A DNA stretch of 64,000 bases, from positions 47,616,001 to 47,680,000 of the forward strand of contig OZ076420.1 in NCBI GenBank assembly GCA_964187785.1. Reading direction: 5' to 3'. This document shows, piece after piece, positions 7,642 through 38,590 of this stretch. The notes under the pieces were generated by a model. The model made no database searches and was not told the origin of the DNA. It saw only the letters and a program-made list of their open reading frames with translations. Origin of the DNA: Amphiscolops sp. MND2022. Its lineage: Eukaryota. The position numbers and the translations under genes were made by a program. Each line of letters opens with the position of its first letter. Positions within the stretch are counted from its first letter, which is position 1.

Positions 7642-10365
7642 ATCCCAAGGTAAGGAGACGATGATGGCGCATTTTTAGAGCGCGTTCAAATTTAAATAAC
7701 TCATTATGATTGATCAAACGTTAAGTTTTCTCAAAAGCCAAATCGAAGATGCCAAGTTTAATTTCCTTTACAATTGAAGTATATTCTCTAATCTCCAACA
7801 CGCGACGACCCCAGATAAGAATCGAAAACGAACTTCAACTGTAATAATCGTCTTCTGTGATGATGACTGTCTAATGTCTCATTTACAACTCCCAGAAGAG
7901 TTCATGGTTGTCTTAGTTCATTCATTTCTGACGGCTGGAAGTGATTAACCTGACTTTTATCTTTATCAATTTCAGTATTCGATCCGTGTTTTCCCCTGAG
8001 AAGTTTGTTTTCTGAGGTAGTATGACCAAGTCTGTTGTTCTCGGCATCCTCTACATCAGTTATTAAATTATGTATCTATTTGCTCTGATCTCTTGAAGTA
8101 TTTCCTCAAATTTGCTATTTAGTTGTTCTTCAATCTTTGACATTTTGGTGTTCTGCTAATCTTTGAGAAATAACTTCTATCTCGTTACCGGTTTCTGAGG
8201 GTTCCGTTGGTTCACTACATGAGTTCCTGTCAAAAATGTTGTGAACAATCTCAGAAACATCAACTAATGTCGCAATATCTTGTGTCAAGGTTGTTTCTGG
8301 GGTGTTTTCGTCTCTGTCTGAAGACTGAGATTCTTCTCTCCTTGAGCGTCTCTTTCTTTTTTCCCCATGGTGAAAGCAATGATTGGCGCAAAAATCTTTT
8401 ATTGTCTGGCGAGATATTTTATTGAATATTGTTCGGCAATTTGGGGTGACTGTCTTGTGCAAGTGTTTTTTGTTGAATGACTGTGGAAAAGACTGACTTT
8501 AAAGGTCCCTTCTCAAACGAGTTGAAAATAAACATCACATCCCTAGGAAGTCTAAATATAGCGCCGTGATAGTAGCGGACTAATGCGGAACAATATGCAA
8601 AATGTACTGTTTGTCATTATAACTCCGCATAAACTGCTTTGTTAAAATCATATAGTTGAGTACAATTCACAAGCACGGCTTCGCTGGTGTGCATTAAGCT
8701 GTTTTTTGATACATTCCGCCCACATAAATGGGGGAGGAAAATCATGACCTGTGATGCGTTTTTTTACAAATTCTGCCAAAACTCCACTTTATCTCCACTC
8801 CATGGAGTGATTTTCTAGCGATAGTTACAACTGAGTTGTTTCAACTATGGTGGCTCAGTCATGTTGTAGGTCCTGGGCTCGAACCCTGGCTGGTGCTTGC
8901 ATTTTTTTGTTTCTCAGCCATTAGGTCGTGACTTCGATCCTCTCCTTCGCCATACTTTTTTTGCAATAAGCGTGTCGCGGAAATTATCCCGTTGCTTAGC
9001 GGGCGTCGTGTTTCCGAATATGCTGTTTTATACAAGCAGCATCGTACGGTATTGATTACAAACAGAAATACGTATGAATTCATGTTGCTACTTTCTAGCT
9101 GACTCATCATGCTGTTTTCAAACAATTTCTGCATAATTATGCTCTAAACGTCATGGTATTCCATAGAAGTTATAAGTATGAACGCAAAAAAGCCGTTTTA
9201 CTTCGTGAATTTTGGCGATAAAAGAAGGGGTTGGTTTGAGTCAAGTAACGATTTTGTTACTTCACCAATTGATGTAATCAACGCGTTTTTTTAGTTCAAC
9301 ATCAAGTTATCATGAAAGTAGAAACGAACAAAACATCAACATTTTCAGATCAACGTTAACGAAGTCTTTAACCAAATAAAGACAAAAGGAAAAATCAATC
9401 TTCAGATTAAATATGTAACTTCTAAGTTGATGAAGGAGTTCAATTGTCTGTGATGTTCAAATATGGGTGTCATTAGAGACACCTCTTCGAGGGCTCTGCA
9501 ATTAAGTGGAGTATGTTGATCTGTTCACCTATGCTGCACGTCGGACATCTCGCAAGAGTAGCCTGGCGACATCAACAAAAAAAGAGACCTAGTATTTCTT
9601 TTTTGGCAACAAGTGCCACAAAAAGATTTGGATAGGCGGCTCCGCAATCAGAGTAAGAGTTTCAAGTCCTTTTTTTCGAACAAAACCCTATCTTCCTAAT
9701 ACTTTAAGTACTTTTTTTGAAACCTGATATTTTGCCATCAAACACAATTCTCCCTTTTATCTGAACCCAACACAAGGCAATCTTTAATTCATAACATTAG
9801 TTTTCTCGAAATGTGAGATAATAAAACGTTGTCCAAAACTCACTCATCGTACATTTGAACTAACTAAGGTGGTGAAAAAAAGACTTTCAACAGCCAAAGT
9901 TGAAACAACACAACAAAGATAAATTTTGATGGAAAAGTACCATCCAACAAATAAATACAACACTCATGAAACGGGAGATTTTAAAAGATATTTTTTGAGA
10001 GCCATATCTTATTAGAAATTGATCGATACTAACATTAACTTCCTGGTAACGCCAACATTAATTCAGAAATTCAATTACCTGAAGATAACTCTGGGAAGGG
10101 AACCATCAATACTATTCGCACACTTGGAAGTGACAGCAGCAAAATACAACTCAGCATTGGAGGTCTTTTTGAGGACATATAGGATGACAAACTTCGCACA
10201 CTACAGAAGATGACCTGCTATTACTAGCTTCATCAGGCAATTTGTTAGGTAGCATTTCCTACTCTGGAGAAAACATCAGACCGACGTCTCTATAGCCTTT
10301 GTTTTTGTCGACTGATTCTTTTTTCCGAGTTTCTCAGCTTTCTAGTCTGGCCAACAATTTCTTTT

Positions 10366-10629
10366 TTAACTGTTTTTTTTACAGCTGGTTTCGCAGCTTG
10401 TTTGAAAGACTTTTTTGGAGGCAACATCCATTAAATCAGGTAGACTTTGAACGAACAACTGTTTACCGATTGATTTCACAGCCAGTAAAAGAACTGTTTT
10501 GGCAAATAAAAGAGCAACACGACACACTCCGAGAGCAAGAAATCCGATACCGCTATCTTTTTTGTGAGCATGCCCTGAAAAATGAGGCAAAGTTGCTTGT
10601 CGAGAGTAATAAATCTGCATTTTAGTCAA
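10366..10629 (-). pseudogene. Small basic amphipathic Maverick/adintovirus ORF downstream of penton (copy 2 at about 17890-18150)
   Basis: YYSRQATLPHFSGHAHKKDSGIGFLALGVCRVALLFAKTVLL..KSIGKQL resembles the recalled QRGxGxG..L.R.A.P ORF that follows penton in Mavericks. Confidence 0.55.
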
Positions 10630-10936
10630 ACTTTCGAAACTTCAAAGTGAGGACCACTCTGCCGGTACCAAGGAATTGAACGTAAGAACCAGTTGTGGTA
10701 ACAAGTTCGATGAATACTTTTTGGATGGAGCTCAGAAGTGGGGACTTAAAATGCAATTCACGGAAACTTCTGTCAGTAGTGGTTGAAACAATGGAAAGGT
10801 CACGGTCTTTCAGCCTTTGTTTTGTGTCAATGACAGGTAAAACTGGGGCCTTGGTTCCAGCAATTTTTTGCTGCTCGAATATATTACAGTAAGCAAAAAA
10901 ACTCGGTTCCTTTAATAAAATCCTAACGAAACTCAC
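10622..10936 (-). pseudogene. Maverick/Polinton minor capsid (penton) C-terminal fragment (copy 2 at about 18145-18460, frameshifted)
   Basis: FAYCNIFEQQKIAGTKAPVL...F..L..SSIQKVFIELVTTTGSYVQFLGTGRVVLTLKFRK matches the recalled penton C-terminus IY.DII..Q.VG...APLL...I.I.L....G..I.F..G...L.L.FR. Confidence 0.7.
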
Positions 10937-11078
10937 TTCTGAGTGATTGAAGTTGTTCTTGCACTAGTTTATTTGAGCCAATAAAAAACAACCGCGATTA
11001 GTGGCAAAAATTTTACTGAAACCAAGAACATTCTGTCGAAAAAATTGAGTCCATACCCTTTGTTGAACTTCAATTCAA

Positions 11079-11366
11079 CATGGGTTGAACTCGTAGTTTT
11101 CTCTATAAAACATCGACAGCTACTAACAGTGGTTTCACACCGTGATTAAACTTGGCTCGCTTGTCAACATAAGCCACGTCAATAGACCAATTTTCGTTGA
11201 TATCAAACGCAATAACTTTCAGGCGAGGGAAACGCCGATATTTTGTATGGGCATTTTTTCCCTGAAGAAAATTGGTTACTTTTCTCCAACTCAAACCAGT
11301 AGCTTTCTTGAGGTTTGCAACACTATCATAAGCAGCAGGTCCTTTTCGATAAAATGCTTCAAGTTT
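11079..11366 (-). pseudogene. Maverick/Polinton retroviral-type integrase, N-terminal fragment, copy 1
   Basis: KLEAFYRKGPAAYDSVANLKKATGLSWRKVTNFLQGKNAHTKYRRFPRLKVIAFDINENWSIDVAYVDKRAKFNHGVKPLLVAVDVL*RKLRVQPM. This is the typical Maverick integrase N-terminus up to the first catalytic Asp, with an in-frame stop and then truncation. Confidence 0.85.
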
Positions 11367-11391
11367 CCAAAAATCTGTTTCAAGGACGGTC

Positions 11392-12075
11392 TCAGCGTCG
11401 CGGAGCGCTCTTTTTTTCTAGAGCTTCGATAGATGACTCATCTCCGGGAAGAACTTTCTTGAAAAGATGTTTCTTCGGGGTTTTGTTTTTAGAACCACTG
11501 GTTGTATCCTTCTTTACAACTGAGGGTAGTAGAATCGTCTTGGCGTCAGAATTATGAACGAATTGAAATATCATTTTTGACAAAATGGTTCCATAGTCCG
11601 TATCATGAAGACCTGTCTTGGGTTGTTGCAAGCTTTAGAGGAAACTGGTGGCTTTCATCGAAATTGGTTGAACATCAAGTGTCAAAAAAACACTCTTCAA
11701 TGAAAGAGACATCAGAGGAGTCGTAAAGTTTAGAAGAGTTGGCTTAGATTTCTCCAGCTGCCATGGTTTCATCTTTGAGAGCGACTTCGAAACATGTTTT
11801 CCAATGTCTTCCCGGTTGCCTGCTGGTGATGATGACGTAGCTTCGTTCTTTTTCTCATTAGTGTTTTCCGATGGTTGATGTCTCTGTAACAGGGTCAATA
11901 ATTTGGCCTTCTCGTTGTTGTTGCATCTTCTCAATTTTCCGAGCTTTTTGCTTGTTGTTTTATGTAATTCTCTTTCGGGATCGATGAAAATGAATTCCCG
12001 TGAAGTCTTTCTGTTAGGTAAGAATTTATTGAGCGATTGATTTGCTGTAATAATTTTATCCCTTTGACTGAGCAC
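11392..12075 (-). pseudogene. Uncharacterised Maverick-associated ORF upstream of integrase, split by frameshift (copy 2 at 18911-19594)
   Basis: ORFs 11635-12075 and 11392-11631 are co-oriented and abut the integrase. The SFL..LQQPK...Y..IL......NSDAK motif is recalled from Maverick ORFs in this position. Confidence 0.45.
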
Positions 12076-13985
12076 AACGTTTTTTGACGTCTCGAGTGCG
12101 GAGTTGTACTATCACATACAATTCTCAGTTGCTTCTCGAAAGATAACAACTTATCAACGTCGAAAAGAACATTGCCAGTGATTATTTTCAGAGCGCACTC
12201 ACAAAAGAAGTTGATTTCTCGTAAATGATTTCACTTTGACGAAGGAATTTTTTGTATTCTTTTTTGGTTTTTCTGGACCATCAGCATTTCAGTAAACGCA
12301 CGTTTTTCTCGTTCTTTTCAGCAATTCAATTCTCTAGAGACTTCAGACAGATAATGGAAAATACTGGAACCTGGCGGCGTTATATAGACAAAAGCTGTGA
12401 AAACAGAATTTCCAAGACAAACTTTCAGTATTCTTTTCTTCGAAGACTAAATATTCAACGCCAATAGCGTCTGGGATGTCAATTGATTTCCCCTCTAGAA
12501 AAAAATGACGAAGAAACCAGAACTAAATTGAAATTAGACAAAAATATCACATTGGTAGAAAAATCAAACATAAAATTGACAAACAATGAAGTTTTCACAA
12601 AGCGGGAAGAAGACAATCTCATACAATGTCGTGTCGTGAAGAAAGCTCATCCGCCATCTGTTTGGTCAGCATTGGGTTGTCAATTCCAATGTTGCATTCT
12701 TTCATTAACTGCTGCAATCGTCGATTTGATATTTTGACTTTAGATGAAATCTAGAAAAAAAATCAACAGAACTTATGCTAGATTTCAAGTTGTGATACTC
12801 AGTTTGCGTTAAAGTGATAACTGCTTTCCTCTATTGTTTGTGTTCTCCAACTTTCTTGTACTCCTCTTTAACAAGTTCTAAGTTGCAATCATCTTGATCA
12901 TGTGAAAGTGGTGTTCCCCTCAGCTTCAGATTCGGAGACAGGGTGAGTTGAAGGTTGTCTTTCAGCATTTGCAGATGAACAATTAACACAGAACTGATTT
13001 CCACGAGAGAGCCAGTAGTAGAATAAATTGGCTTTTACCCTGGCACAACGAATTCGCAAATTTTTGTTGTAATGACTGTGACAATTCAGACTGGCGAACT
13101 GAATCAACTGATTGGCACTGGTACTGTTCAAAGTTTCTAAGTCAACTACGTGTGAAAAGAAACAACGGAGGTATGAACACTTCTCAAACCAACCCTTTAG
13201 CGTACACAATAAGGTTAGGAAAGCGTATTTTAAGCAGACGAAACAGCAGAACAAAAATGAAAAATAGTGGATACCAGATTCCCAAGTTAGACCATGCGGG
13301 TTTTTGTTACTCAAGCATAAACCTTTTGAGTCTTACACGGAAGGACATTTGATGTGTAAGATAGTTTGAGAAGGATAGTGTCATGAAAATCAAAAGCACG
13401 AACAGAGAGTTCCTTGATAACAAACGGTTGGTTGGAAATTCGAAAGCCCTCAAAATCAAAAACGACTGATTGATAGCTTAACATTGCAGACTTGTGAAGC
13501 CGTTTTGATGCGGTGTTCTCAAAACTAGCACAGACTGAAACAAACTGACTAGGTTTTGAGTTTTGAATGCAATACCAAGAAACTGACTATTATTGACTAA
13601 CAATCAAGATAAAGCTCCGAGCAGATATGTTCATCGATGCAGTTCGAAAATTCTAATTAAACATTCAGACATAGCTGCCATAAAATAGTAAGGTTTCAGG
13701 CTTGAAAGACTTGCATCATACCTCAATAGTCGCGCAAATAGAGAAGCGCTGAAACCACCAACTCGTTTAGGATTAGTGCAGCAATCAGTTATAAAAGACT
13801 GGAAGTATCGAAGGTGAGACATAAAACCATTTTGAACCAGTTTTAGTAGAATTTGAAGGAAGTTGCACTAGGGTTGTATGTAACAGCAATGGGATTCCAA
13901 AAGCGATCCACAATCAGAAGAGACATTTCAAAAACAGCAACTGATGAACGCAAGTTTTTGTGTGGGAATGAATCGCTTATCAATG

Positions 13986-14282
13986 CTACCACAAAAATTT
14001 CTCACATCGCTTGCCGCCATAATCGTTTTGACATAAACAAGCTAGTACACCTACATCTATTGGAATGTAACACGTACCACCATTCAAACAGTAGGTTACA
14101 CTCTCTGACGGACATCTCAAATTAAGTGATGTGGTCAATGGACTTGCAGTAGTTATACTAGTTGCGTTAGGAACAGCTGGCTCGGAAGGACCTTGAAACA
14201 GCAACCATAATACATCTCCTATTAGCGAAAGTAAGAAACTCGTCCATAGAACAACAGTGAAAAATACTCGTAGGAAACGCAT
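13986..14282 (-). CDS. EGF-like growth-factor ORF, copy 1 (C-terminally truncated by a 1-nt deletion)
   Basis: ATG at 14282; hydrophobic N-terminus; S/T-rich stalk; CPSESVTYCLNGGTCYIPIDVGVLACLCQNDYGGKRC = CX7CX5CX10CXCX8C with GxRC. Confidence 0.75.
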   Translation of the reverse strand: MRFLRVFFTVVLWTSFLLSLIGDVLWLLFQGPSEPAVPNATSITTASPLTTSLNLRCPSESVTYCLNGGTCYIPIDVGVLACLCQNDYGGKRCEKFLW

Positions 14283-14859
14283 CCTTCTCCGATAGTCCTG
14301 GGTGTTTTTCGCTTGTAAAATGAAGCAAAAAAACATAAAATTAATATGTGAAAATGTTTGCGGGGGTTGATTTATGGGTCACGAAATCAAATGAAGTGTC
14401 CACGATACAGTACGACACTTGGTGAAATAGGTCGAAATTAATGACAGTTATGGGATTCCAAGCAGTCTCTGATTACACTATGTAAATAAAATTTTCCAAT
14501 GCAAATTCAACATTGGTTTGCTTTCTGGGTCGCGGCACAGTCTGCACAGACACTATGTAAACAAAAACTTGCGATGCGCACCGCATAGCTGAAGCTATGT
14601 TGTGAGATTTTCTCACCCTTATAAAATCGTGAATTTTTTATGGGAGTCGTAAAACTGGGGGAAAATTGAGGATTAGTATCAAAGATTCTTCGATGAATCC
14701 TGACACCCGTTGTATACCTAACAAATTCCTATACTAATTTTGTATCTAGCGAGCTGAAATTTTCCTTAAAATTACAGCATAAGGACTCGGTAACTAATTT
14801 GTGAACTTTGTGAACCGGAAGTTGCTATGTCTGACATTTCGATTTTCAATCTAGAATTC

Positions 14860-15100
14860 GTTGTTCCTCTATGATCATGCTATGATAACATGCTATGATT
14901 ATGCTATGATAATGATATGATAACCCATACTACGATCATGCTTTGTTCCTACTATGAAACACGATGAGCATAATATGATCATACTATGAAACTTGGTCGC
15001 CATGGTACGGTCTTGGAATGGTCGCCATGGAATGACCATGATCATAGTATGATCATACTATGGTCATAGCATGGTGAGTATGTTTGGTCAACCTGGGCTA
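14860..15100. repeat. ATGATC/CTATG-rich low-complexity, partly palindromic repeat block (copy 2 at about 22360-22595)
   Basis: Many CTATGAT and ATCATG motifs, a 30-bp near-perfect palindrome at 15038-15067, ending in CAACCTGGG. Confidence 0.7.
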
Positions 15101-18100
15101 GGTGGTATAAAAAGTCAAGTAGCTGCTTCGCCAAAACCAGAAAATTCATCGCACTTACGTTAACGCCCAAAGCAGTGGGTGTGTCTCAACTTGTAACAGA
15201 ATAATTGTTAAACGTCTTCTGCAAGGTTTCATAATCGTTTCCTTATCGTAGCGTGATGGCAATACTTTCCTGAATTCGATTCTGAATCTCATATTGGTAA
15301 AACAATAATATGTAACCTTTCGCTAAGTTTTCCACATTGGGGATATGCCAGCTCGCTCCAAAACTGTTGCTTCGATGTAAACTCTGTGGATGTTGTGTGA
15401 ACATGTTCCACTGTGTGTGGATTTTGTTGTCCACATGCGTTCATTCATTTCTGACGGCTGGAAGTGATTAACCTGACTTTTATCTTTATCAATTTCAGTA
15501 TTCGATCCGTGTTTTCCCCTGAGAAGTTTGTTTTCTGAGGTAGTATGATCAAGTCTGTTGTTCTCGGCATCCTCTACATCAGTTATTAAATTATGTATCT
15601 ATTTGCTCTGATCTCTTGAAGTATTTCCTCAAATTTGCTATTTAGTTGTTCTTCAATCTTTGACATTTTGGTGTTCTGCTAATCTTTGAGAAATAACTTC
15701 TATCTCGTTACCGGTTTCTGAGGGTTCCGTTGGTTCACTACATGAGTTCCTGTCAAAAATGTTGTGAACAATCTCAGAAACATCAACTAATGTCGCAATA
15801 TCTTGTGTCAAGCTTTTTTCTGGGGTGTTTTCGTCTCTGTCTGAAGACTGAGATTCTTCTCTTCTTGAGCGTCTCTTTCTTTTTCCCCCATGGTGAAAGC
15901 AATGATTGGCGCAAAAATCTTTTATTGTCTGGCGAGATATTTTACTGATTATTGTTCGGCAAACTTGGGGTGACTGTCTTGTGCAAGTGTTTTTTGTTGA
16001 ATGACTGTGGAAAAGATTGACTTCAAAGGTCCCTTCTCAAACGAGTTGAAAATAAACATCACATCCCTAGGAAGTCTAAATATAGCGCCGTGGTAGTAGC
16101 GGACTAATGCGGAACAATATGCAAAATGTACTGTTTGTCATTATAACTTCGCATAAACTGCTTTGTTAAAATCATATAGTTGAGTACAATTCCCAAGCAC
16201 GGCTTCGCTGGTGTGCATTAAGCTGTTTTTTGTTATATTCCGCCCACATAAATGGGGGAGGAAAATCATGACCTGTGATGCGTTTTTTTTACAAATTCTG
16301 CCAAAACTCCACTTTATCTCCACTCCATGGAGTGATTTTCTAGCGATAGTTACAACTGAGTTGTTTCAACTATGGTGGCTCAGTCATGTTGTAGGTCCTG
16401 GGCTCGAACCCGGGCTGGTGCTTGCTTTTTTTTGTTTCTCAGCCATTAGGTCGTGGCTTCGATCCTCTCCTTCGCCATACTTTTTTTGCAATAGGCGTGT
16501 CGCGGAAATTATCTCGGTGCTTAGCGGGCGTCGTGTTTCCGAATATGCTGTTTTATACAAGCAGCATCGTACGGTATTGATTACAAACAGAAATACGTAT
16601 GAATTCATGTTGCTACTTTCTAGCTGACTCATCATGCTGTTTTCAAACATTTTCTGCATAATTATGCTCTAAACGTCATGGTATTCCATAGAAGTTATAA
16701 GTATGAACGCAAAAAAAGCCGTTTTACTTCGTGAATTTTGGCGATAAAAGAGGGGGTTGGTTTGAGTCAAGTAACGATTTTGTTACTTCACCAATTGATG
16801 TAATCAACGAGTTTTTTTTAGTTCAACATCAAATTATCATGAAAGTGGAAACGGACAAAACATCAACATTTTCAGATCAACGTTACCGAAGTCTTTAACC
16901 AATTAAAGACAAAAGGAAAAATCAATCTTTAGAACAAATATTTAACTTCTAAGCTGATGAAGGAGTTCAATTGTCTGTGATGTTCAAATATGGGTGTCAT
17001 TAAAGACACCTCTTCGAGGGCTCTAGAATTAAGTGGAGTATGTTGATCTGTTCACCTAAGCTGCACGTCGGACATCTCGCAAGAGTAGCCTGGCGACATC
17101 AACAAAAAAAGAGACCTAGTATTTTTTTGGCAACAAATGCCACAAAAAGATTTGGATAGGCGGCTCCGCAATCAGAGTAAGAGTTTCAAGTCCTTTTTTT
17201 GAACAAAACCCTATCTTCTTAATATTATAAGTACCTTTTTTGAAACCTGATAATTTGCCATCAAACACAATTCTCCCTTTTATCTGAACCCAACACAAGG
17301 CAATCTTTAATTCATAACATTAGTTTTCTCGACAAGTGAGATAATAAAATGTTGTCCAAAACTCACTCATTGTACATTTGAACTAGCTAAGGTGGTGAAA
17401 AAAAGACTTTCAACAGCCAAAGTTGGAACAACACAACAAAAATAAATTTTGATGGAAAAGTACCATCCAACAAATAAATACAACACTCAGGAAACGGGAG
17501 ATTTTAAAAGATATTTTTTGAGAGCCATATTTTATTAGAAAATGATCGATACTAACATTAACTTCCTGGTAACGCCAACATTAATTCAGAAGTTCAATTA
17601 ACTGAAGATAACTCTGGGAAGGGAACCATCAATACTATTCGCACACTTGGAAGTGACAGCAGCAAAATACAACTCAGCATTGGAGGTCTTTTTGAGGACA
17701 TATAGGATGACAATTTTCGCACACTACAGAAGATGACCTGCTATTACTAGCTTCATCAGGCAATTTGTTAGGTAGCATTTCTTACTCTGGAGAAAACATC
17801 AGACCGACGTCTCTATAGCTTTTGTTTTTGTCGACTGACTCTTTTTCCCGAGTTTCTCAGCTTTCTAGTCTGGCCAACAATTTGTTTTTTTACTGTTTTT
17901 TCACAGCTGGTTTCGCAGCTTGTTTGAAAGATTTTTTTGGAGGCAACATCCATTAAGTCAGGTAAACTTTGAACGAACAACTATTTACCGATTGATTTCA
18001 CAGCCAGAAAAAGTACTGTTTTGGCAAAGGAAAGAGCAACACGAAACACTCCGAGAGCAAGAAATCCGATACCGCTATCTTTTTTGCGAGCATGCCCTGA

Positions 18101-18598
18101 AAAATGAGGCAAAGTTGCTTGTCGAGAGTAATAAACCTGCATTTCAGTCAAACTTTCGAAACTTCAAAGTGAGGACCACTCTGCCGGTACCAAGGAATTG
18201 AACCTAAGAACCAGTTGTGGTAACAAGTTCGATGAATACTTTTTGGATGGAGTTCAGAAGTAGGGCTTAAATTGCAATTCACGGAAACTTCTGTCACTAA
18301 AAGTTGAAACAATGGAAAGGTCACGGTCTTTCAGCCTTCGTTTTGTGTCAATGACAGGTAAAACTGGGCCTTGGTTCCAGCAACTTTTTGCTGCTCGAAT
18401 ACATTACAGTAAGCAAAAAAAATCGGTTCCTATAATAATATCCGAACGAAACTCACTTCTGAGTGATTGAAGTTGTTCTTGCACTAATTTATTTGAGCCG
18501 ATAAAAAACAACCGCGATTAGTGGCAAAAATTTTACTGAAACCAAGAACATTCTGTCGAAAAAATTGAGTCCATACCTTTTGTTGAACTTCAATTCAA

Positions 18599-18885
18599 CA
18601 TGGGTTGAACTCGTAGTTTTCTCTATAAAACATCGACAGCTACTAACAGAGGTTTCACACCGTGATTAAACTTGGCTCGCTTGTCAACATAAGCCACGTC
18701 AATAGAACAATTTTCATTGATATCAAACGCAATAACTTTCAGGCGAGGGAAACGCCGATATTTTTTTGGGCATTTTTTCCCTGAAGAAAATTGGCTACTT
18801 TTCTCCAACTCAAACCAGTTGCTTTCTTGAGGTTTGCAACACTATCATAAGCAGCAGGTCCTTTTCGATACAATGCTTCAAGTTT
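18599..18885 (-). pseudogene. Maverick/Polinton integrase N-terminal fragment, copy 2
   Basis: Same motifs as copy 1 (KYRRFPRLKVIAFDINENCSIDVAYVD...VAVDVL*), with an extra frameshift. Confidence 0.85.
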
Positions 18886-21352
18886 CCAAAAATCTGTTTC
18901 AAGGACGGTCTCAGCGTCGCGGAGCGCTCTTTTTTTCTAGAGCTTCGATAGATGACTCATCTCCGGGAAGAACTTTCTTGAAAAGATGTTTCTTCGGGGT
19001 TTTGTTTTTAGAACCACTGGTTGTTTCCTTCTTTACAACTGAGGGTAGTAGAGTCTTCTTGGCGTCAGAATTATGAACGAATTGAAATATCATTTTTGAC
19101 AAAATGCTTCCATAGTCCGTATCAAGAAGACTTGTCTTGGGTTGTTGCAAGCTTTAGAGGAAACTGGTGGCTTTCATCGAAATTGGTTGAACATCAAGTG
19201 TCAAAAAGACCCTCTTCAATGAAAGAGACATCAGAGGAGTCGTAAAGTTTAGAAGAGTAGGCTTGGATTTCTCCAGCTGCCATGGTTTCATCTTTGAGAG
19301 CGACTTCGAAACATGTTTTCCAATGTCTTCCCGGTTGCCTGCTGGTGATGATGACGTAGCTTCGTTCTTTTTCTCATTAGTGTTTTCCGATGGTTGATGT
19401 CTCTGTAACAGGGTCAATAATTTGGCCTTCTCGTTGTTGTTGCATCTTCTCAATTTTCCGAGCTTTTTGCTTGTTGTTTTATGTAATTCTCTTTCGGGAT
19501 CGATGAAAATGAATTCCCGTGAAGTCTTTCTGTTAGGTAAGAATTTATTGAGCGATTGATTTGCTGTAATAATTTTATCCCTTTGACTGAGCACAACGTT
19601 TTTTGACGTCTCGAGTGCGGAGTTGTACTATCACATACAATTCTCAGTTGCTTCTTGAAAGATAACAACTTATCAACGTCGAAAAGAACATTGCCAGTAG
19701 TTATTTTCAGAGCGCACTCACAAAAGAAGTTGATTTCTCGTAAATCACATTGACGTAGGAATTTTTTGTATTCTTTTTTGGTTTTTCTGGACCATCAGCG
19801 CTTCAGTAAACGCACGTTTTTCTCGTTATTTTCAGCAATTCATTTCTCTAGAGACTTCAGACAGATAATGAAAAATACTGAAACCTGGCGGCGTTATATA
19901 GACAAAAACCGTGAAAACAGAATTTCCAAGACAAACGTTCAGTATTGTTTTCTTCGAAGACTAAATATTCAACGCCAATAGCGTCTGGGATGTCAACTGA
20001 TTTCCCATCTAGAAAAAATTGACTGAGAAACCAGAACTAAATTGAAATTAGACAAAAATATCACAATGGTAGAAAAATCAAACATAAAACTGACAAACAA
20101 TGAAGTTTTCACAAAGCGGGAAGAAGACAATCTCATACAATGTCGTGTCGTGAATAAAGCTCATCCGCCATCTGTTTGGGCAGCATTGAGTCGTCAATTC
20201 CAATGTTGCATTCTTTCATTAACTGCTGCAATCGTCGATTTGATATTTTAACTTCAGATGAAATCTAGAAAAAAAGTTAACAGAACTTAAGCTAGATTTT
20301 AAGTTGTGATACTCAGTTTGCGTTAAAGTGATAACTGCTTTCCTCTATTGTTTGTGTTCTCCAACTTTCTTGTACTCCTCTTTAACAAGTTCTAAGCTGC
20401 AATCATCTTGATCATGTGAAAGTGGTGTTCCCGTCAGCTTCAGATTCGGAGACAGGGTGAGTTGAAGGTTGTCTTTCAGCATTTGCAGATGAACAATGAA
20501 CACAGAACTGATTTCCACGAGAGAGCCAGTAGTAGAATAAATTGGCTTTTACCCTGGCACAACGAATTCGCAAATATTTGTTGTAATGATTGCGACAATT
20601 CAGACTGGCGAACTGAATCAACTGATTGGCACTGGTACAGTTCAAAGTTTCGAAGTCAACTACGTGTGAAAAAAAACAACGGAGGTATGAACACTTTTCA
20701 AACCCTTCAGCGTACACAATAAGGTTAGGAAAGCGTATTTTAAGCAGACGAAACAGCAGAACAAAAATGAAAAATCGTGGATGCCAGATTCCTAAGTTAG
20801 ACCATGCGGGTTTTTGTTAACTAAGCATAAACGTTTTGAGTCTTACACGGAAGGACATTTGATGTGTAAGGTGGTTTGAGAAGCATAGTGTCGTGAGAAT
20901 CAAAAGCACGAACAGAGAGTTCCTTGATAACAAACGGTTGGTTGGAAATTTGAAACCCCTCAAAATCAACAACGACTGGTTGATAGCTCAACATTGCAGA
21001 CTTGTGAAGCCGTTTTGATGCGGTGTTCTCAAAACTAGCACAGACTGAAACAAACTGACTAGGTTTTGAGTTTTGAATGCAATACCAAGAAACAGACTAC
21101 TATTGGCTAACAATCAAGATAAAGCTCCGAGCAGATATGTTCATCGATGCAGTTCGAAAATTCTAATTAAACATTCAGACATAGCCGCAATAAAATAGTA
21201 AAGTTTTAGGCTTGAAAGAATCGCATCATACCTCAATAGTCGCGCAAATGGAAAAGCGCTGAAACCACCAACTCATTTAGGATTAGTGCAGCAATCAGTT
21301 ATAAAAGACTGGAAGTATCGAAGGTGAGACATAAAACCATTTTGAACCAGTT

Positions 21353-21793
21353 TTAGTAGAATTTGAAGGAAGTTGCACTAGGGTTGTATGTAACAGCAAT
21401 GGGATTCCAAAAGCGATCCACAATCAGATGAGACATTTCAAAAATAGCAACTGCTAAACGCAAGTTTTTGGGTGGGAATGAATCGCTTATCAATGGTACC
21501 ACGATAAATTTCTCACATCGCTTGCCGCCATAATCGTTTTGACATAAACAAGCTAGTACACCTACATCTATTGGAATGTAACACGTACCACCATTCAAGC
21601 AGTAGGTTACACTCTCTGACGGACATCTCAAATTAAGTGATGTGGTCAATGGACTTCCAGTAGTTACACTAGTTGCGTTAGAAACAGCTGGCTCGGAAGG
21701 ACCTTGAAACAGCAACCATAATACATCTCCTATTAACGAAAGTAAGAAACTCGTCCATAGAACAACAGTGAAAAATACTCGTAGGAAACGCAT
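21353..21793 (-). CDS. EGF-like growth-factor ORF, copy 2 (146 aa, open)
   Basis: Same EGF motif, N-terminal hydrophobic segment, NAT sequon, and 55 further residues after the sixth Cys. No intron needed. Confidence 0.8.
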   Translation of the reverse strand: MRFLRVFFTVVLWTSFLLSLIGDVLWLLFQGPSEPAVSNATSVTTGSPLTTSLNLRCPSESVTYCLNGGTCYIPIDVGVLACLCQNDYGGKRCEKFIVVPLISDSFPPKNLRLAVAIFEMSHLIVDRFWNPIAVTYNPSATSFKFY

Positions 21794-24700
21794 CCTTCTC
21801 TGATAGTCCTGGGTGTTTTTGTCTTGTAAAATGAAGCAAAAAAAACATAAATTTAATATGTGAATATGTTTGCAGGGGTTGATTTATGGGTCACGAAATC
21901 AAATGAAGTGTCCACGATACAGTTCGACACTTGGTAAAATAGGTCGAAACTAATGACAGTTATGGGATTCCAAGCAGTCTGTGTTTACACTATGTAAAAA
22001 AAATCTTCCAATGCAAATTCAACATTGGTTTGCTTTCTGGGTCGCGGCACAGTCTGCACAGACACAATGTAAACAAAAGCATAGCTGAAGCTGTGTTGTG
22101 AGATTTTCTCACCCTTATAAAATTGTGAAATTTTTATCGGAGTCGTAAAACTGGGGGAAAATTGAGGATTCGTATCAAGGATTCTTCGATGAATCCTGAC
22201 ACCCGTTGTATACCTAACAAATTCCTATACTACTTTTGTATCTCACGAGCTGAAATCTTCCTTAAAATTACAGCATAAGGACTCGGTAACTAATTTGTGA
22301 ACTTTGTGAACCGGAAGTTGCTATGTCTGACATTTCGATTTTCAATCTAGAATTCATTGTTCCTCTATGATCATGCTATGATAACATGCTATGATTATGC
22401 TATGATAATGCTATGATAACCCATACTACGATCATGCTTTGTTCCTACTATGAAACACGATGAGCATAATATGATCATACTATGAAACTTGGTCGCCATG
22501 GAACGATCTTGGAATGGTCGCCATGGAATGACCATGATCATAGTATGATCATACTATGGTCATAGCATGGTGAGTATGTTTGGTCAACCTGGGCTAGGTG
22601 GTATAAAAAGTCAAGTAGCTGCTTCGCCAAAACCAGAAAATTCATCGCACTTACGTTAACGCCCAAAGCAGTGGGTGCGTCTCAACTTGTAACAGAATAA
22701 TTGTTAAACCTCTTCTGCAAGGTTTCATAATCGTTCCATTATCGTAGCGTGATGGCAATATTTTCCTGAATTCGATTCTGAATCTCATATTGGTAAAACA
22801 ATAATATGTAACCTTTCGCTAAGTTTTCCACATTGGGGATATGCCAGCTCGCTCCAAAACTGTTGCTTCGATGTAAACTCTGTGGATGTTGTGTGAACAT
22901 GTTTAATTGATTGGAAGAACTCGATGAATTGGAGATTTCCAGGGTTTACTTTTTAAAGTGATATTGTGATTCACCAGGAAAAATCTGAAAAACAGCTCGA
23001 ACATTTGAATTCAATTCAATAATAATTTTGTTTGATGTGTATTATCTATAGAAATTTTTCAATAACAATGAACATCATGCCTGGGCAAGTTAACACCTAG
23101 AAAATCCAGAAAACGCCGAAATTATGGTGAAAGAATACTGTATTTGCATGTTGTCAAACAGTTGCTTCCAAAGTGGATGAAAAGCAACATTTTCATGGGT
23201 TATCAAGTATGAAACTTCATTGTGAAATATTTCATGGATGTAAAACACATGAATCCAACCATGAATTGTGGAAAAAAGCAGAAATTCTGTAGAGCTAAAT
23301 TTGAAAAACTCTAAAACCAAACTAGAACTAAATTTCTAAAAGTAAAACTTAAAACTCTACGAAACTCTCAAAAATATATCTCTATAAAACTCTTGAGAGA
23401 AAACTTTTGAAAAAGAGATTGTGACTTTCTTGCAAACACTTTTAGAAATGAACTTGAGAAGTTCTCAATGACAAAACTGTTATATATAAAGTTGAAACAC
23501 AACTTACATCCCAAAAGTTGAGGAAGCGATTGATTTCAGTATTCGCAAGAATAACTTATCATAATTTTGTGAAGAAAACATTCTGCATAACTTACAACGA
23601 TTGCTGGTGAAACAGAGAAAGGAGTTTGAAGTTTTTTAAACAAATCACTTTCGTGTACAGACCTTTGTCCCTAGACTTTGAATAGCATCTTGAGTACAGC
23701 AATTAATGAAGTGTAAAACAGCAGGGCAAAATAAAGAAGAAGTGCTTCTGAAGTACAGTACGATATGAATTGAATAAAAGTGCTGGTTGAATTATTTAGC
23801 ATGCATCTGTTTTCTAATTTGATCAACTTTTCTCTCGATTTTGTGTTGCCCAGTTTAAACTAAAATTAGCTGTTCGACTGAGCAATTTAAAAATGTTGCA
23901 AATAACCTTCGAAAAGCATTTGTGTTCAGTCCAAATCAGCATCTCATAAAAGTTTCGTTCAAATCAGGAAACCTCCATGTTCGGCGCATAAGCCGATAAA
24001 TTCTCAAGATAGGTTCCTTGACAGAAAGATAGTAATTTGCTTCGACATTTCAGTCAGCAAAAGCAAAACACAAAGCTCTAAAAATGCTGAGTTCTAGAAA
24101 ATTTCTAAAATTAATGTTGTGATGTAGGTGCAATTTCTTAGAATCGGTTTTTTCTTTTGTTCTATTTAAGGGAGTGTAAAAAGCCAATGCAAAAATATTA
24201 CCGATATGAATTCAAAAGCCGTCCCGTGCCGTGCCGTTTCTGGTTAACCAGTCTTGATGGAACTGGTCCAGGCCAATGGAACCTATCTGGATAATACATC
24301 GGCGTATGCCGGAGATGCACCAATGAAAAGTGAGACAGGGAGGCAAAACAAAAATTTGAGGATATTTCGATAGTTTTCCATGATCCACAGTATCTTCACT
24401 GAACGTTTTTGAGAATACATTATAGCAGTTCTTTTTGGGAATGAATGAGATTTGAAATGTGGTCTTCACAAATCTTTTGAAAATTGTTCAAAATTATTAA
24501 TAATTGAAAACACGTTATGGCAGTTGGTTCTGGGAATGAATAAGATATGAAATGTGATTTTCACCAATCATCTCTAAATTTTCCAAAGTTATGAATAATT
24601 CAATTCTGAAATTCCGTTCCTAAAGATAACCATCTTTTCACTTAGTTTCAACATCTGAATATTTTATAGTTTTCTGAGAGTACACACAATGGTCAACTGA

Positions 24701-35344: not shown

Positions 35345-38300
35345 GTTACCATTGATAGAATGCGAGGAGAAAGTGTTACTAATGAAGAAACTCCTGTGAC
35401 CAAAAAAATTTATAACTCAACTACACCGCCGATGAATGAGCTGGCAAACGGAACGTACCAGATATTCAATCTGATACCCAAAACAAGAGCAACATTGTTC
35501 AGGCAGAACAAACTGATACCCAAAGCAAGAGCAACTTTGCTCAGGCAGAACAAACTGAAATTTTTTTAAATTCAAATCTTTATGAGTAGAGAGAACCAAG
35601 AGAGCAAAGTTTATCCACCAAAATGTACCGTTTCTCATGTGTTTGAACATTCAATCGTTACGATGCCATCGCGACGAACTAAAAATTGAATTAGAAACAT
35701 ACAAAAATAAACCTACAATAATAGCCTTAACCGAAACATGGCTAACTAAAAATGACGACCTAGATGATGAATATAACTTGAAACACTATCAACCGATTGA
35801 ATCAAAACCACGCATTAGAGACACACGTGGTGGTGTTGCCTTTTACATCAGAGAACGTTTACAGTACCGAATTATTGATTACCATTGTGACTTAGAATGC
35901 CTAATTCGGAGTGTTAATTTCGGTATTAATAAAACAAAAAACTTTTGCGTCGTATACAGGCCTCACAGCATCAAAACGAGATTTTTCTTGAACGAAATGG
36001 AAAAACTAATAGAATTTTAACGAAGTTTGAGTAATGATACCATTATTTGCGGAGATTTCAACATTGATACTATCGCAAACTCCAAGGATAAATACGATTA
36101 GGAAACATTGCTACTAGCTTTTGATTTCAAATGTCAAAATTTCGAACCAACCAGAGTAACCGCGACATCTTCAACATGCCTTGATCATGTGATTACAAGT
36201 TATCAACTTAAGACAGAAACTATCCAAACAACAATGAGTGATCATTTCACAGTTTTGGAAACAATACCTGGTGTGTTTTTTAACGAACCCGTAATTTCTG
36301 AAGAAAAAATCTACAGACGTGACTTGCGCAGTATCAAAGGTGACAAAGCACTAAATTTCTTGTTTTTACTGAACCAAAAACTTAAAAAACTTGACCAATT
36401 GGATAAACTTGATATTCAAAAAATCACGGAAACTATCATGTTCTGCGTGGACAAATTTGCACTTGAAAAAGAAACCACCAAAACTGAAAAATGCAATGAA
36501 TGGATCACCAATAAAATAAAAAATGAAATTACTAAGAGAAACGAATTATTTCGTGAATGGACTGTTTCATCAAAAAATCAGAGAAACAAGGTTACTGCAA
36601 TGATCGAGAAAGCTAAACGAGAATGTAATTTACAAAAATTGGGAAATAATCCAAACGCAAAGACACTGTACCGAAATCTGAAGAGCCATAAAAGAAAAGA
36701 TCAAAACGCTGAGGTTACTCCAGATTTAAAAACTCTCAACGAATTTTTTACAACAATTGGATCGAAGTTAGCAGACGCGGTTCCTCCTTCTAATAAAGAA
36801 TATTTTGTTCCCAAGTTCGAGAAAACTATGGTCCCAAATTATACAAACCAACATGAAACTTCAAAAATTCTAGCAAAAATGAAAAATAAAAAAAACAGCG
36901 GTCACGATGGCATCAGTAACGAAATCCCTAAATGTTGTTCGCCGGTAATTGAAATTTATCTGACAAATTGCTTCAATAACTGCATTGAAAAACAGTTCTT
37001 CCCGAATAGTTTGAAAATAGCCAAAGTTATACCCCTCTATAAAAAAGGTAATGCCAATGATCCAGGCAACTATCGACCCATCTGTTTACTAAGCTCTCTG
37101 AGCAAGGTGTTCGAAAAATTATTATATAATCGAATGGTTAGTTTTTTCAATAAGAAGGGTCTATTCACTGCAAAACAATATGGTTTTAGATCAAGAAAAT
37201 CCTGTGCACAAGCCATTACTAAAATTACTGATTATATGCGTAGAGAATTGGACCAAAAATCTTCCGGCCAAGTATGTTTCATTGATTTACAAAAAGCATT
37301 TGACTCGCTGAATCATGAAATACTCTTGGAAAAGCTGAAGAACTATGGTTATAGAGGACCAATCCACAACATATTAGCTGATTATCTATCTCAGAGGTTT
37401 CAATATGTGTCAATTAGAAAAACAAATAGTGCTTCGAGAGAAATTCGAACTGGGGTTCCCCAGGGTTCTATTCTGGGTCCCTTTCTATTTCTTGTATTTA
37501 TAAATGATCTGCCAGATGTGTGCCAAAAAAGCGAAATAGCAATTTTTGCTGATGATACGTCGATTGTTGAAGCTGGAAAAACTGATGACGGAAACACTTA
37601 CGGATTGGTTCAGTTACAACAAATTGTCGATAAACACATCCAAATGTGAAAGTATATCTTTTGGTCGTATGTATCAAAGACAAATAACTATCATGGAAAA
37701 AAAGATTTCTCAAAAAAACTGCTGTAAATACTTGGGATTGTACATTGACCCAGTGTTAACTTTTCGGGACCATATTAACCATGTAGTGAATAACCTCAAA
37801 AAACTTTGTGGATTAATTTACAGAGTTAGAGACTTGTATCCAATAAAGGCTTTGCTATCGTTTTACAATTCATATGCGAAATCTGTAATTTCTTACGGTC
37901 TGATAGTTTATGGAAGAGCGGCAAAAACAAACATGCAAAATATTGAAATGGCACAAAGAAGAATTATTAGAGCTATTTTCTTTAAAAAGAAAAGAGATAG
38001 CATCAGGGATATACTTCGTGACACTGAAGTTAATACCGTTTTTGAGTTATTCATTGTGGATGTTTTTCGTGATATTTTTAGTCAACTACGCTCAGATGAA
38101 AAAACGAATCTTATTACAAAGTTAGGACAGTCAAAAAGCACTCCCAGATATGAAACTCGTCGATCAAAAAAAACTTTTCTACCAGTATCTATGAACCGAA
38201 CAAGAACCAAATATAAATCGGTGGAAAATGCATTAATCAAAGGCTATAATTGGTTAATTGAAATGGATTTGATGCCGGCTGGTGTCGGAGAAATGACGCA

Positions 38301-38590
38301 TCGTCAACTTACATCATATCTGAAGATTCTAACACGGTTGTATATAAATGAAAGTACAGATATCGTATCGCATTTTTTCCAATAGGAAGACGTCTTCAAA
38401 TGTTCATCGGAACACAATTAACGAAAGCGATAAACTTGCCTATCTTGGTCCTGTACTTAAGGGCAGAAACTTGAAGAGCTGATTAGGCTCATTTTCTGTC
38501 CTTCTTGAACATTTTCATTTCTTAGCGTTAAAATACTATTAATACTTTGATTGTAATTTCTTATGTTCAAGTTAGTTATGTTCAAGAAAA
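35345..38590 (+). mobile_element. CR1/L2-group non-LTR retrotransposon, 5'-truncated in ORF1
   Basis: ORF1 tail, then APE endonuclease and RT, then a 3' UTR ending in tandem TTATGTTCAAG. End coordinates approximate. Confidence 0.9.
35637..38385 (+). pseudogene. LINE ORF2 (AP endonuclease plus RT), two in-frame stops and one frameshift
   Basis: NIQSL, ALTETWL, GGVAFY, VVYRPH, GDFN, CLDHV, SDH; NYRPICLL, QYGFR, FIDLQKAFD, GVPQGSILGP, FADDT. Stops at 36018-36020 and about 36100; frameshift near 37580. Confidence 0.93.

Follow-up and report, generated by a model that had tools for sequence, protein, structure and literature searches.

The window analysed here, a stretch of 64,000 nucleotides, contains a 146-codon open reading frame (ORF) on its minus strand (21353-21793) that had been described from the letters alone as an EGFR-ligand-like gene. 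Its translation has the hydrophobic N-terminus, the serine/threonine stalk and the EGFR-ligand cysteine spacing claimed for it (CX7CX5CX10CXCX8C, ending GKRC), together with a sequon at N39. The description holds in part. The first ~96 codons (21503-21793, minus strand; hydrophobic N-terminus at about residues 3-30, stalk, and EGF domain from Cys57) are homologous to the family protein, while the last ~50 residues (21353-21502, minus strand) are a read-through tail in a frame that belongs to the next small ORF, entered through a one-base deletion just past Cys6. The length of this copy, hereafter copy 2, is thus a product of frameshift read-through in a family whose protein has about 100 residues. 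Copy 1 (13986-14282, minus strand) encodes 98 residues and has a premature stop two codons before the family end. With copy 2 frameshifted and copy 1 stopped early, both window copies are damaged, and they are decaying relics.

The two copies lie in a 7.5-kb tandem duplication, the first unit of which (7916-15407) comprises host flank and a Maverick/Polinton remnant and the second of which (15439-22903) is 96.4% identical to it. As the preliminary description stated, the ORF shares its duplicated unit with Maverick fragments and is co-oriented with those of the integrase (18563-18918) and of a penton-like gene (18147-18644), 2.4 kb away. Its placement of the ORF beside the remnant has to be revised, since the ORF sits within the Maverick as its first gene, about 440 nt inside the left terminal repeat. 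In copy 2 this inverted repeat occupies 22012-22234 (minus strand), with an AGTAGT start at 22234, 441 nt upstream of the EGF start; in copy 1 it occupies 14500-14738 (minus strand). The truncated copy 2 element (17738-22234, minus strand) runs from the left end to the core-protein gene and has two internal deletions of about 730 and 980 nt; its PW-like, ATPase, integrase and penton-like genes are broken, and its capsid, protease and pPolB genes and right end are missing. The copy 1 element (10215-14738, minus strand) has the same extent and deletions. Both are left-end remnants of 4.5 kb, and capsid, pPolB and right end were found neither in the window nor in the 20 kb before it.

Elsewhere in the window, a minus-strand ORF with an amiloride-sensitive sodium channel domain (800-1423; PF00858, E 2e-21) apparently lies between two 260-nt repeats in a retroelement-like neighbourhood. 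A LINE-like element with a reverse transcriptase ORF (PF00078) occupies 35637-38385 (plus strand), and a second large tandem duplication (39649-64000; 99% identical over 10.3 kb aligned) holds a Gypsy-like gag-protease region and a 1.19-kb internal tandem repeat.

Searched at the DNA level with the window ORF, the host's own genome gave 35 matches, 30 of which were examined. In 23 of these the frame is open, with six cysteines, a length of 99-100 residues and an end 7 residues after Cys6; the remaining seven are damaged, both window copies included. All 30 have a common sharp terminal sequence about 430-500 nt upstream of the start, which begins with AGTAGT in 27. Extension of such loci led to full-length carriers of the ORF, with terminal repeats, target duplications and core genes. 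In family A, both ends with inverted repeats were found in 4/5 extended loci, giving elements of 18.3-19.4 kb, and the 6-bp target duplications of these four are exact in three and match at 5/6 bases in one. Among other lineage-I families both ends were found in 4/9 extended loci, plus one neighbouring element (6-bp duplications in 5/5), and in a further sample of eight EGF loci both ends were found in three (6-bp duplications in 3/3).

Full-length EGF-bearing Mavericks are 16-20 kb long and encode pPolB (DNA_pol_B_2, PF03175, E 2.6e-13), an rve integrase (PF00665, E 5.3e-11), a packaging ATPase (Pox_A32, PF04665, E 1.9e-6) and a cysteine protease (Peptidase_C5, PF00770, E 9.4e-5), as identified by Pfam in a full-length element. 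Their terminal inverted repeats have AG...CT ends, of which the window copies retain the left. From the left end, the order is EGF, small ORFs, ATPase, integrase, penton-like, core-like, capsid-like and protease genes, followed by two reverse ORFs, pPolB, a tandem array and a reverse uS5-like ORF. The 439- and 284-residue ORFs, conserved at the expected place in all three Maverick lineages described below, have no Pfam or PDB sequence match; we take them to be capsid-like and penton-like, respectively, by place and size only. In these features the carriers resemble the Mavericks/Polintons known as adintoviruses, which likewise have AGTAGT terminal inverted repeats, 6-bp duplications, pPolB, an rve integrase, an A32-like ATPase and an adenain-like protease.

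Several other features of these elements were observed. Many lineage-I Mavericks have near their right end a captured-looking 117-residue gene (L034:7562-7915, minus strand) with a ribosomal protein S5 C-terminal domain (PF03719, E 1e-13; 150 matches scored among 313 genome candidates), in which nonsynonymous change is far above that of core genes. The family-A pPolB is split by a 97-nt GT-AG intron-like gap (L034:3780-3876), with a similar gap in family B, while the pPolB of families C, D and E reads straight through; the family-A gap looks like an intron gained within a Maverick gene. A 2.2-kb tandem array of ~108-nt units lies between pPolB and the uS5-like ORF (L034:5084-7318), and other families also have tandem arrays at this position.

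The EGF ORF recurs at a fixed position in divergent Maverick families. Protein searches of the same genome each gave 610-623 first-look candidates, of which 150 were scored, and these figures are not copy numbers. In 17 of 20 sampled divergent EGF loci several Maverick genes lie downstream in conserved order, with only two in L064, a deletion derivative; one further locus (L060) has a single small element ORF and starts with the terminal motif, and the last two carry terminal-repeat sequence. A host locus free of Maverick sequence is not among the 20. The EGF gene is retained in deletion derivatives of several forms, namely a 1.2-kb mini-element with two terminal repeats (L054:6680-7904), an EGF gene abutting the capsid-like gene (L156:1248-2753) and an inverted pair (L160:4133-6683).

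At least five EGF-bearing families, with capsid-like genes 57-100% identical, make up lineage I. In lineage II the capsid-like gene is 31% identical to that of lineage I, pPolB has the opposite orientation, and the EGF gene lies mid-element, about 3 kb upstream of the ATPase block; the further sample of eight EGF loci comprised seven of lineage II (L148 by DNA similarity) and one lineage-I deletion derivative. As a control, ten pPolB loci were picked from a Pfam search regardless of EGF, and none of them had an EGF hit within about 20 kb on either side. Nine of the ten form a third Maverick lineage without the EGF gene, and since this lineage spreads in the same genome, the gene is not essential. 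Capsid and integrase trees separate the three lineages; being unrooted, they do not distinguish one ancient gain with loss from transfer between lineages.

The domain belongs with the ErbB ligands. The Pfam EGF score of the window ORF (17.3 bits) is below the 21.5-bit cut-off, which one family member passes (24 bits). A profile of the family matched 28 PDB chains, all of them ErbB ligands, Spitz or an ant EGF-like peptide, with Notch or clotting-factor modules absent from these 28; given these matches and the 23 open frames among 30 close copies, the window motif is not a chance one. The arginine before Cys6, a tyrosine and a glycine are invariant in 12/12 aligned element copies. A model of the EGF domain reached a pLDDT of 86.7, and its top structural matches were neuregulin-1, epiregulin, Spitz, betacellulin and EGF at a TM of about 0.8, with other EGF modules appearing from rank 20, in a comparison whose underlying alignment included ligands of known type and so favours likeness to them; Atlas leads for the domain were epigen and EGF, both under 0.9. 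In an AlphaFold prediction of the whole protein, based on 12 sequences, the EGF domain came out poorly (mean pLDDT 63.8), and only the predicted N-terminal helix, over residues 2-30, was used. The uncharged N-terminal stretch spans 17-43 residues in 11 copies; a usual signal peptide is often shorter.

Marks of ErbB ligands are a splice site between Cys4 and Cys5 and an EGF module adjoining a C-terminal transmembrane helix (PMC1618406, in part). The element gene has the six-cysteine module with ligand spacing and the arginine before Cys6, whereas the splice site and the adjoining helix are absent from it and present in a host relative. This relative was reached through P0175, a protein returned by a wide profile search, which is of type I with signal peptide, stalk, EGF domain, transmembrane helix and tail, and is nearest to gurken-like and neuregulin-4-like clusters (0.96 and 0.94). 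Its counterpart in the host's own genome lies on contig C5 at 29.807-29.819 Mb, in six exons of 55-85% identity, with a GT-AG intron between Cys4 and Cys5; no Maverick core genes occur at this locus beyond a weak 24% integrase match in an intron. The intron-bearing host gene is thus a locus separate from that of the window ORF. Two host EGFR L1 exons were also found in this genome.

Host exon 3 is identical to the element tails at 11-15 of 17 positions (11/15 for the window copy) and to outsiders at 4-8 (20 ligand-like and five poxvirus or giant-virus-type proteins). The Cys1-Cys4 half is far less diagnostic, elements matching the host at 9-15 of 26 positions and other ligands at 7-11. Over the whole domain, family E is identical to the host at 30/43 positions and P0175 at 26/43. 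The element gene ends four codons short of the end of host exon 3 and lacks the Cys4-Cys5 intron, transmembrane helix and cytoplasmic tail of the host ligand, the missing intron being as expected for processed capture. On sequence comparison, the six-exon transmembrane EGFR ligand on C5 is the likely donor, and from its ancient layout we infer a direction from host to element. Most synonymous sites have reached saturation in comparisons of host exons with elements; the capture is therefore old, and a different host paralogue could be the true donor. A tree of 46 EGF columns (L060 and three short relatives, in which the motif was not matched, left out) groups all element rows and 15 short relatives with the host-type ligand, at a support of 87/98 only and with three long-branch outsiders inside the group. 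Compared with host ligands of the TGF-alpha/Spitz/Gurken type, the Maverick gene has in common the EGF spacing, the arginine before Cys6 and the host-ligand tail, and differs in its hundreds of candidate loci instead of one. Full-length elements, fixed position, purifying selection and a separate multi-exon host gene together support the proposal of the preliminary description that a Maverick captured a host EGF ligand.

That selection is seen between element subfamilies, where the EGF domain and tail have dN/dS values of 0.05, 0.07, 0.105 and 0.117 in four independent pairs; the pooled value is 0.084 (31 synonymous against 14 nonsynonymous changes, Fisher p 1e-14), close to the 0.015-0.05 of the capsid-position gene. 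The N-terminal half of the protein is looser (0.27-1.2). The strong constraint between subfamilies does not extend to the window pair, at 0.79 from few changes (two synonymous, five nonsynonymous), nor to the 1.2-kb solo derivative, at 1.06 against its family. The window pair gives no sign of post-insertion selection, and the earlier suggestion that copy 2 might have stayed open through selection is not supported. As subfamilies are constrained and resident copies look neutral, selection acted during element replication and not in the host chromosome. Such purifying selection shows that the gene has a function, without saying which. A pattern for an E2F-like site upstream of the EGF start had no match in 12/12 copies, two of them with shortened windows.

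Beyond this genome, the family profile found 532 short proteins, 120 of them listed. For families such as P0108, P0039 and P0312 there is no close counterpart in the host's own genome, where the best match reaches about 50-57% or nothing passes the cut-off. Read-through forms of some share element neighbour ORFs, P0162 with lineage II and P0180, P0192 and P0256 with lineage I, and EGF-bearing Mavericks therefore probably exist in other assemblies. A single-sequence homologue search gave only six near-identical proteins, and a search among longer proteins yielded three read-through forms but not the host ligand. Viral contigs contained five EGF loci, none Maverick-sized; one belongs to a giant-virus bin, and the other four are presumably poxvirus-like, by size. 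Maverick genes were found in none of 20 loci checked among 25 EGF loci in metagenome contigs. The protein of the giant-virus bin (GVMAG, L165:3663-4076) is laid out like that of the Maverick gene, an EGFR-ligand-like domain at the C-terminus coming after a hydrophobic segment, but its sequence is not close.

Poxviruses are known to carry an EGF gene, and nematode Mavericks to carry cargo of host origin; the literature searched has nothing on an EGFR-ligand gene that is fixed and under selection in Mavericks. The growth factors of vaccinia (VGF), myxoma and Shope fibroma viruses are likewise intronless, virus-borne ErbB-ligand EGF genes near a genome end, but their carriers are poxviruses of 130-300 kb, against an integrating element of 16-20 kb here. 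VGF has a C-terminal transmembrane helix that the Maverick gene lacks, and the short leporipoxvirus growth factor form is closer to it in layout. The Maverick EGF groups with the host's ligand type and is not a member of the poxvirus growth factor family by descent. Four poxvirus-like proteins have 5 of 16-17 tail residues in common with the host ligand and fall outside the element group in the tree, which makes the Maverick capture an independent one. By analogy, the Maverick EGF may nevertheless work like a poxvirus growth factor.

Accessory genes of adintoviruses include PLA2X, GasderminX, cupiennin-like genes, Rb-binding Oncoids, Bcl2 and IAP (PMC8502044, in part); compared with the Oncoids, an extracellular ligand would be another route to the same end. 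Nematode Mavericks likewise carry host-derived cargo (WASP proteases, KRMA kinases and the MFUS-1 fusogen) between left terminal repeat and integrase, which is variable and keeps its introns (10.1101/2022.07.12.499685, in part), unlike the EGF gene here, which is intronless, fixed in position across families and constrained like core genes. The literature searched, which did not extend to supplements, Repbase-type annotations and subscription journals, yielded no report of a Maverick-borne EGF, and 'growth factor' does not occur in the main text of PMC8502044; in the passages covered of other papers on Mavericks or small DNA viruses, neither 'growth factor' nor 'EGF' appears.

Full-length elements and subfamily comparisons establish that the EGF gene is element-borne and conserved in two distant lineages. 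We consider it reasonably probable that the ORF is a Maverick accessory gene, an intronless and shortened relative of a host ligand under purifying selection, which likely acts as a viral growth factor activating host EGFR. Capture would have proceeded through spliced mRNA, after which a stop 7 residues past Cys6 would have been set near the end point of a shed ligand. In an active element, the protein would enter the secretory path through its N-terminal hydrophobic helix. Its EGF domain would then face outwards, whether the protein is presented at the surface in type II topology or set free; the long helix means that the protein may stay tethered and not be secreted. EGFR-MAPK signalling would be stimulated by the domain, both in the cell that makes the protein and in those around it, and all of these would be induced to enter the cell cycle, to survive or to gather. 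Such an effect would benefit a small DNA element, which depends on host nucleotides and has to reach stem or germ-line cells that are dividing. VGF is an activator of EGFR that favours survival, motility and spread (PMC13705586 and PMC10741569, each in part), and neuregulin-EGFR signalling gathers stem cells in an acoel (PMC13046036, in part), the latter being an analogy only.

A membrane-anchored EGF domain might instead serve attachment, docking an enveloped particle or producing cell to EGFR-positive cells for entry or cell-to-cell spread, and not act as a mitogen. An uncharged N-terminal stretch often above signal-peptide length would suit this, as would the gain of a fusogen by nematode Mavericks, for which enveloped particles have been proposed (10.1101/2022.07.12.499685, in part). 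But no fusogen-sized membrane ORF occurs among 25 ORFs scanned, and the EGF gene stands apart from the virion module in both lineages (first in lineage I, upstream of the ATPase block in lineage II), so that we regard this role as unlikely. An antagonist or decoy that binds EGFR without full activation, damping wound, immune or differentiation signalling, seems to us improbable. In its Cys1-Cys4 half, family A has drifted until only 9/26 residues are shared with the host, whereas it has kept the tail, and viral ligands can signal unlike host ones (PMC13705586, in part); against this, family E has kept most of the host domain, and both regions by which agonists contact the receptor look intact. 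These regions we take to be the invariant arginine, tyrosine and glycine and the hydrophobic tail.

That the gene is a passenger, riding along or serving the host as an extra ligand with no benefit to element spread, would agree with the third lineage doing without it and with solo copies in deletion derivatives, but the contrast between constrained subfamilies (0.05-0.12) and neutral-looking resident copies (0.79 and 1.06) largely refutes it, and we give it very little credence. The remaining reading, that a Maverick remnant happens to have a multi-exon host gene or a fortuitous EGF-like motif next to it, could cite the low Pfam score of the window ORF in its favour but is ruled out for practical purposes by the fixed in-element position in many dispersed insertions and by the intron-bearing host gene elsewhere.

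A more far-reaching form of the growth-factor reading, which we offer tentatively and rate at somewhat under even, is that of a long-domesticated virokine, passed between diverged Maverick lineages and captured independently of poxviruses, that summons or expands dividing stem or germ-line cells. If a growth factor is indeed at work, it would be one in a small integrating DNA virus, and elements released from repression, with their hundreds of copies, may supply EGFR ligand on a scale comparable to that of the single host gene. As a case of gene capture this one is clean, since the donor gene, its intron and the point of truncation can all be seen. Element copies can also inflate the number of EGF ligands counted in such genomes. 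For the question of whether animal Mavericks still live as host-manipulating viruses, an extracellular signalling ligand under selection would be indirect evidence of a virus-like life cycle, as it is of use mainly to an element that acts on further cells besides, or instead of, its own.
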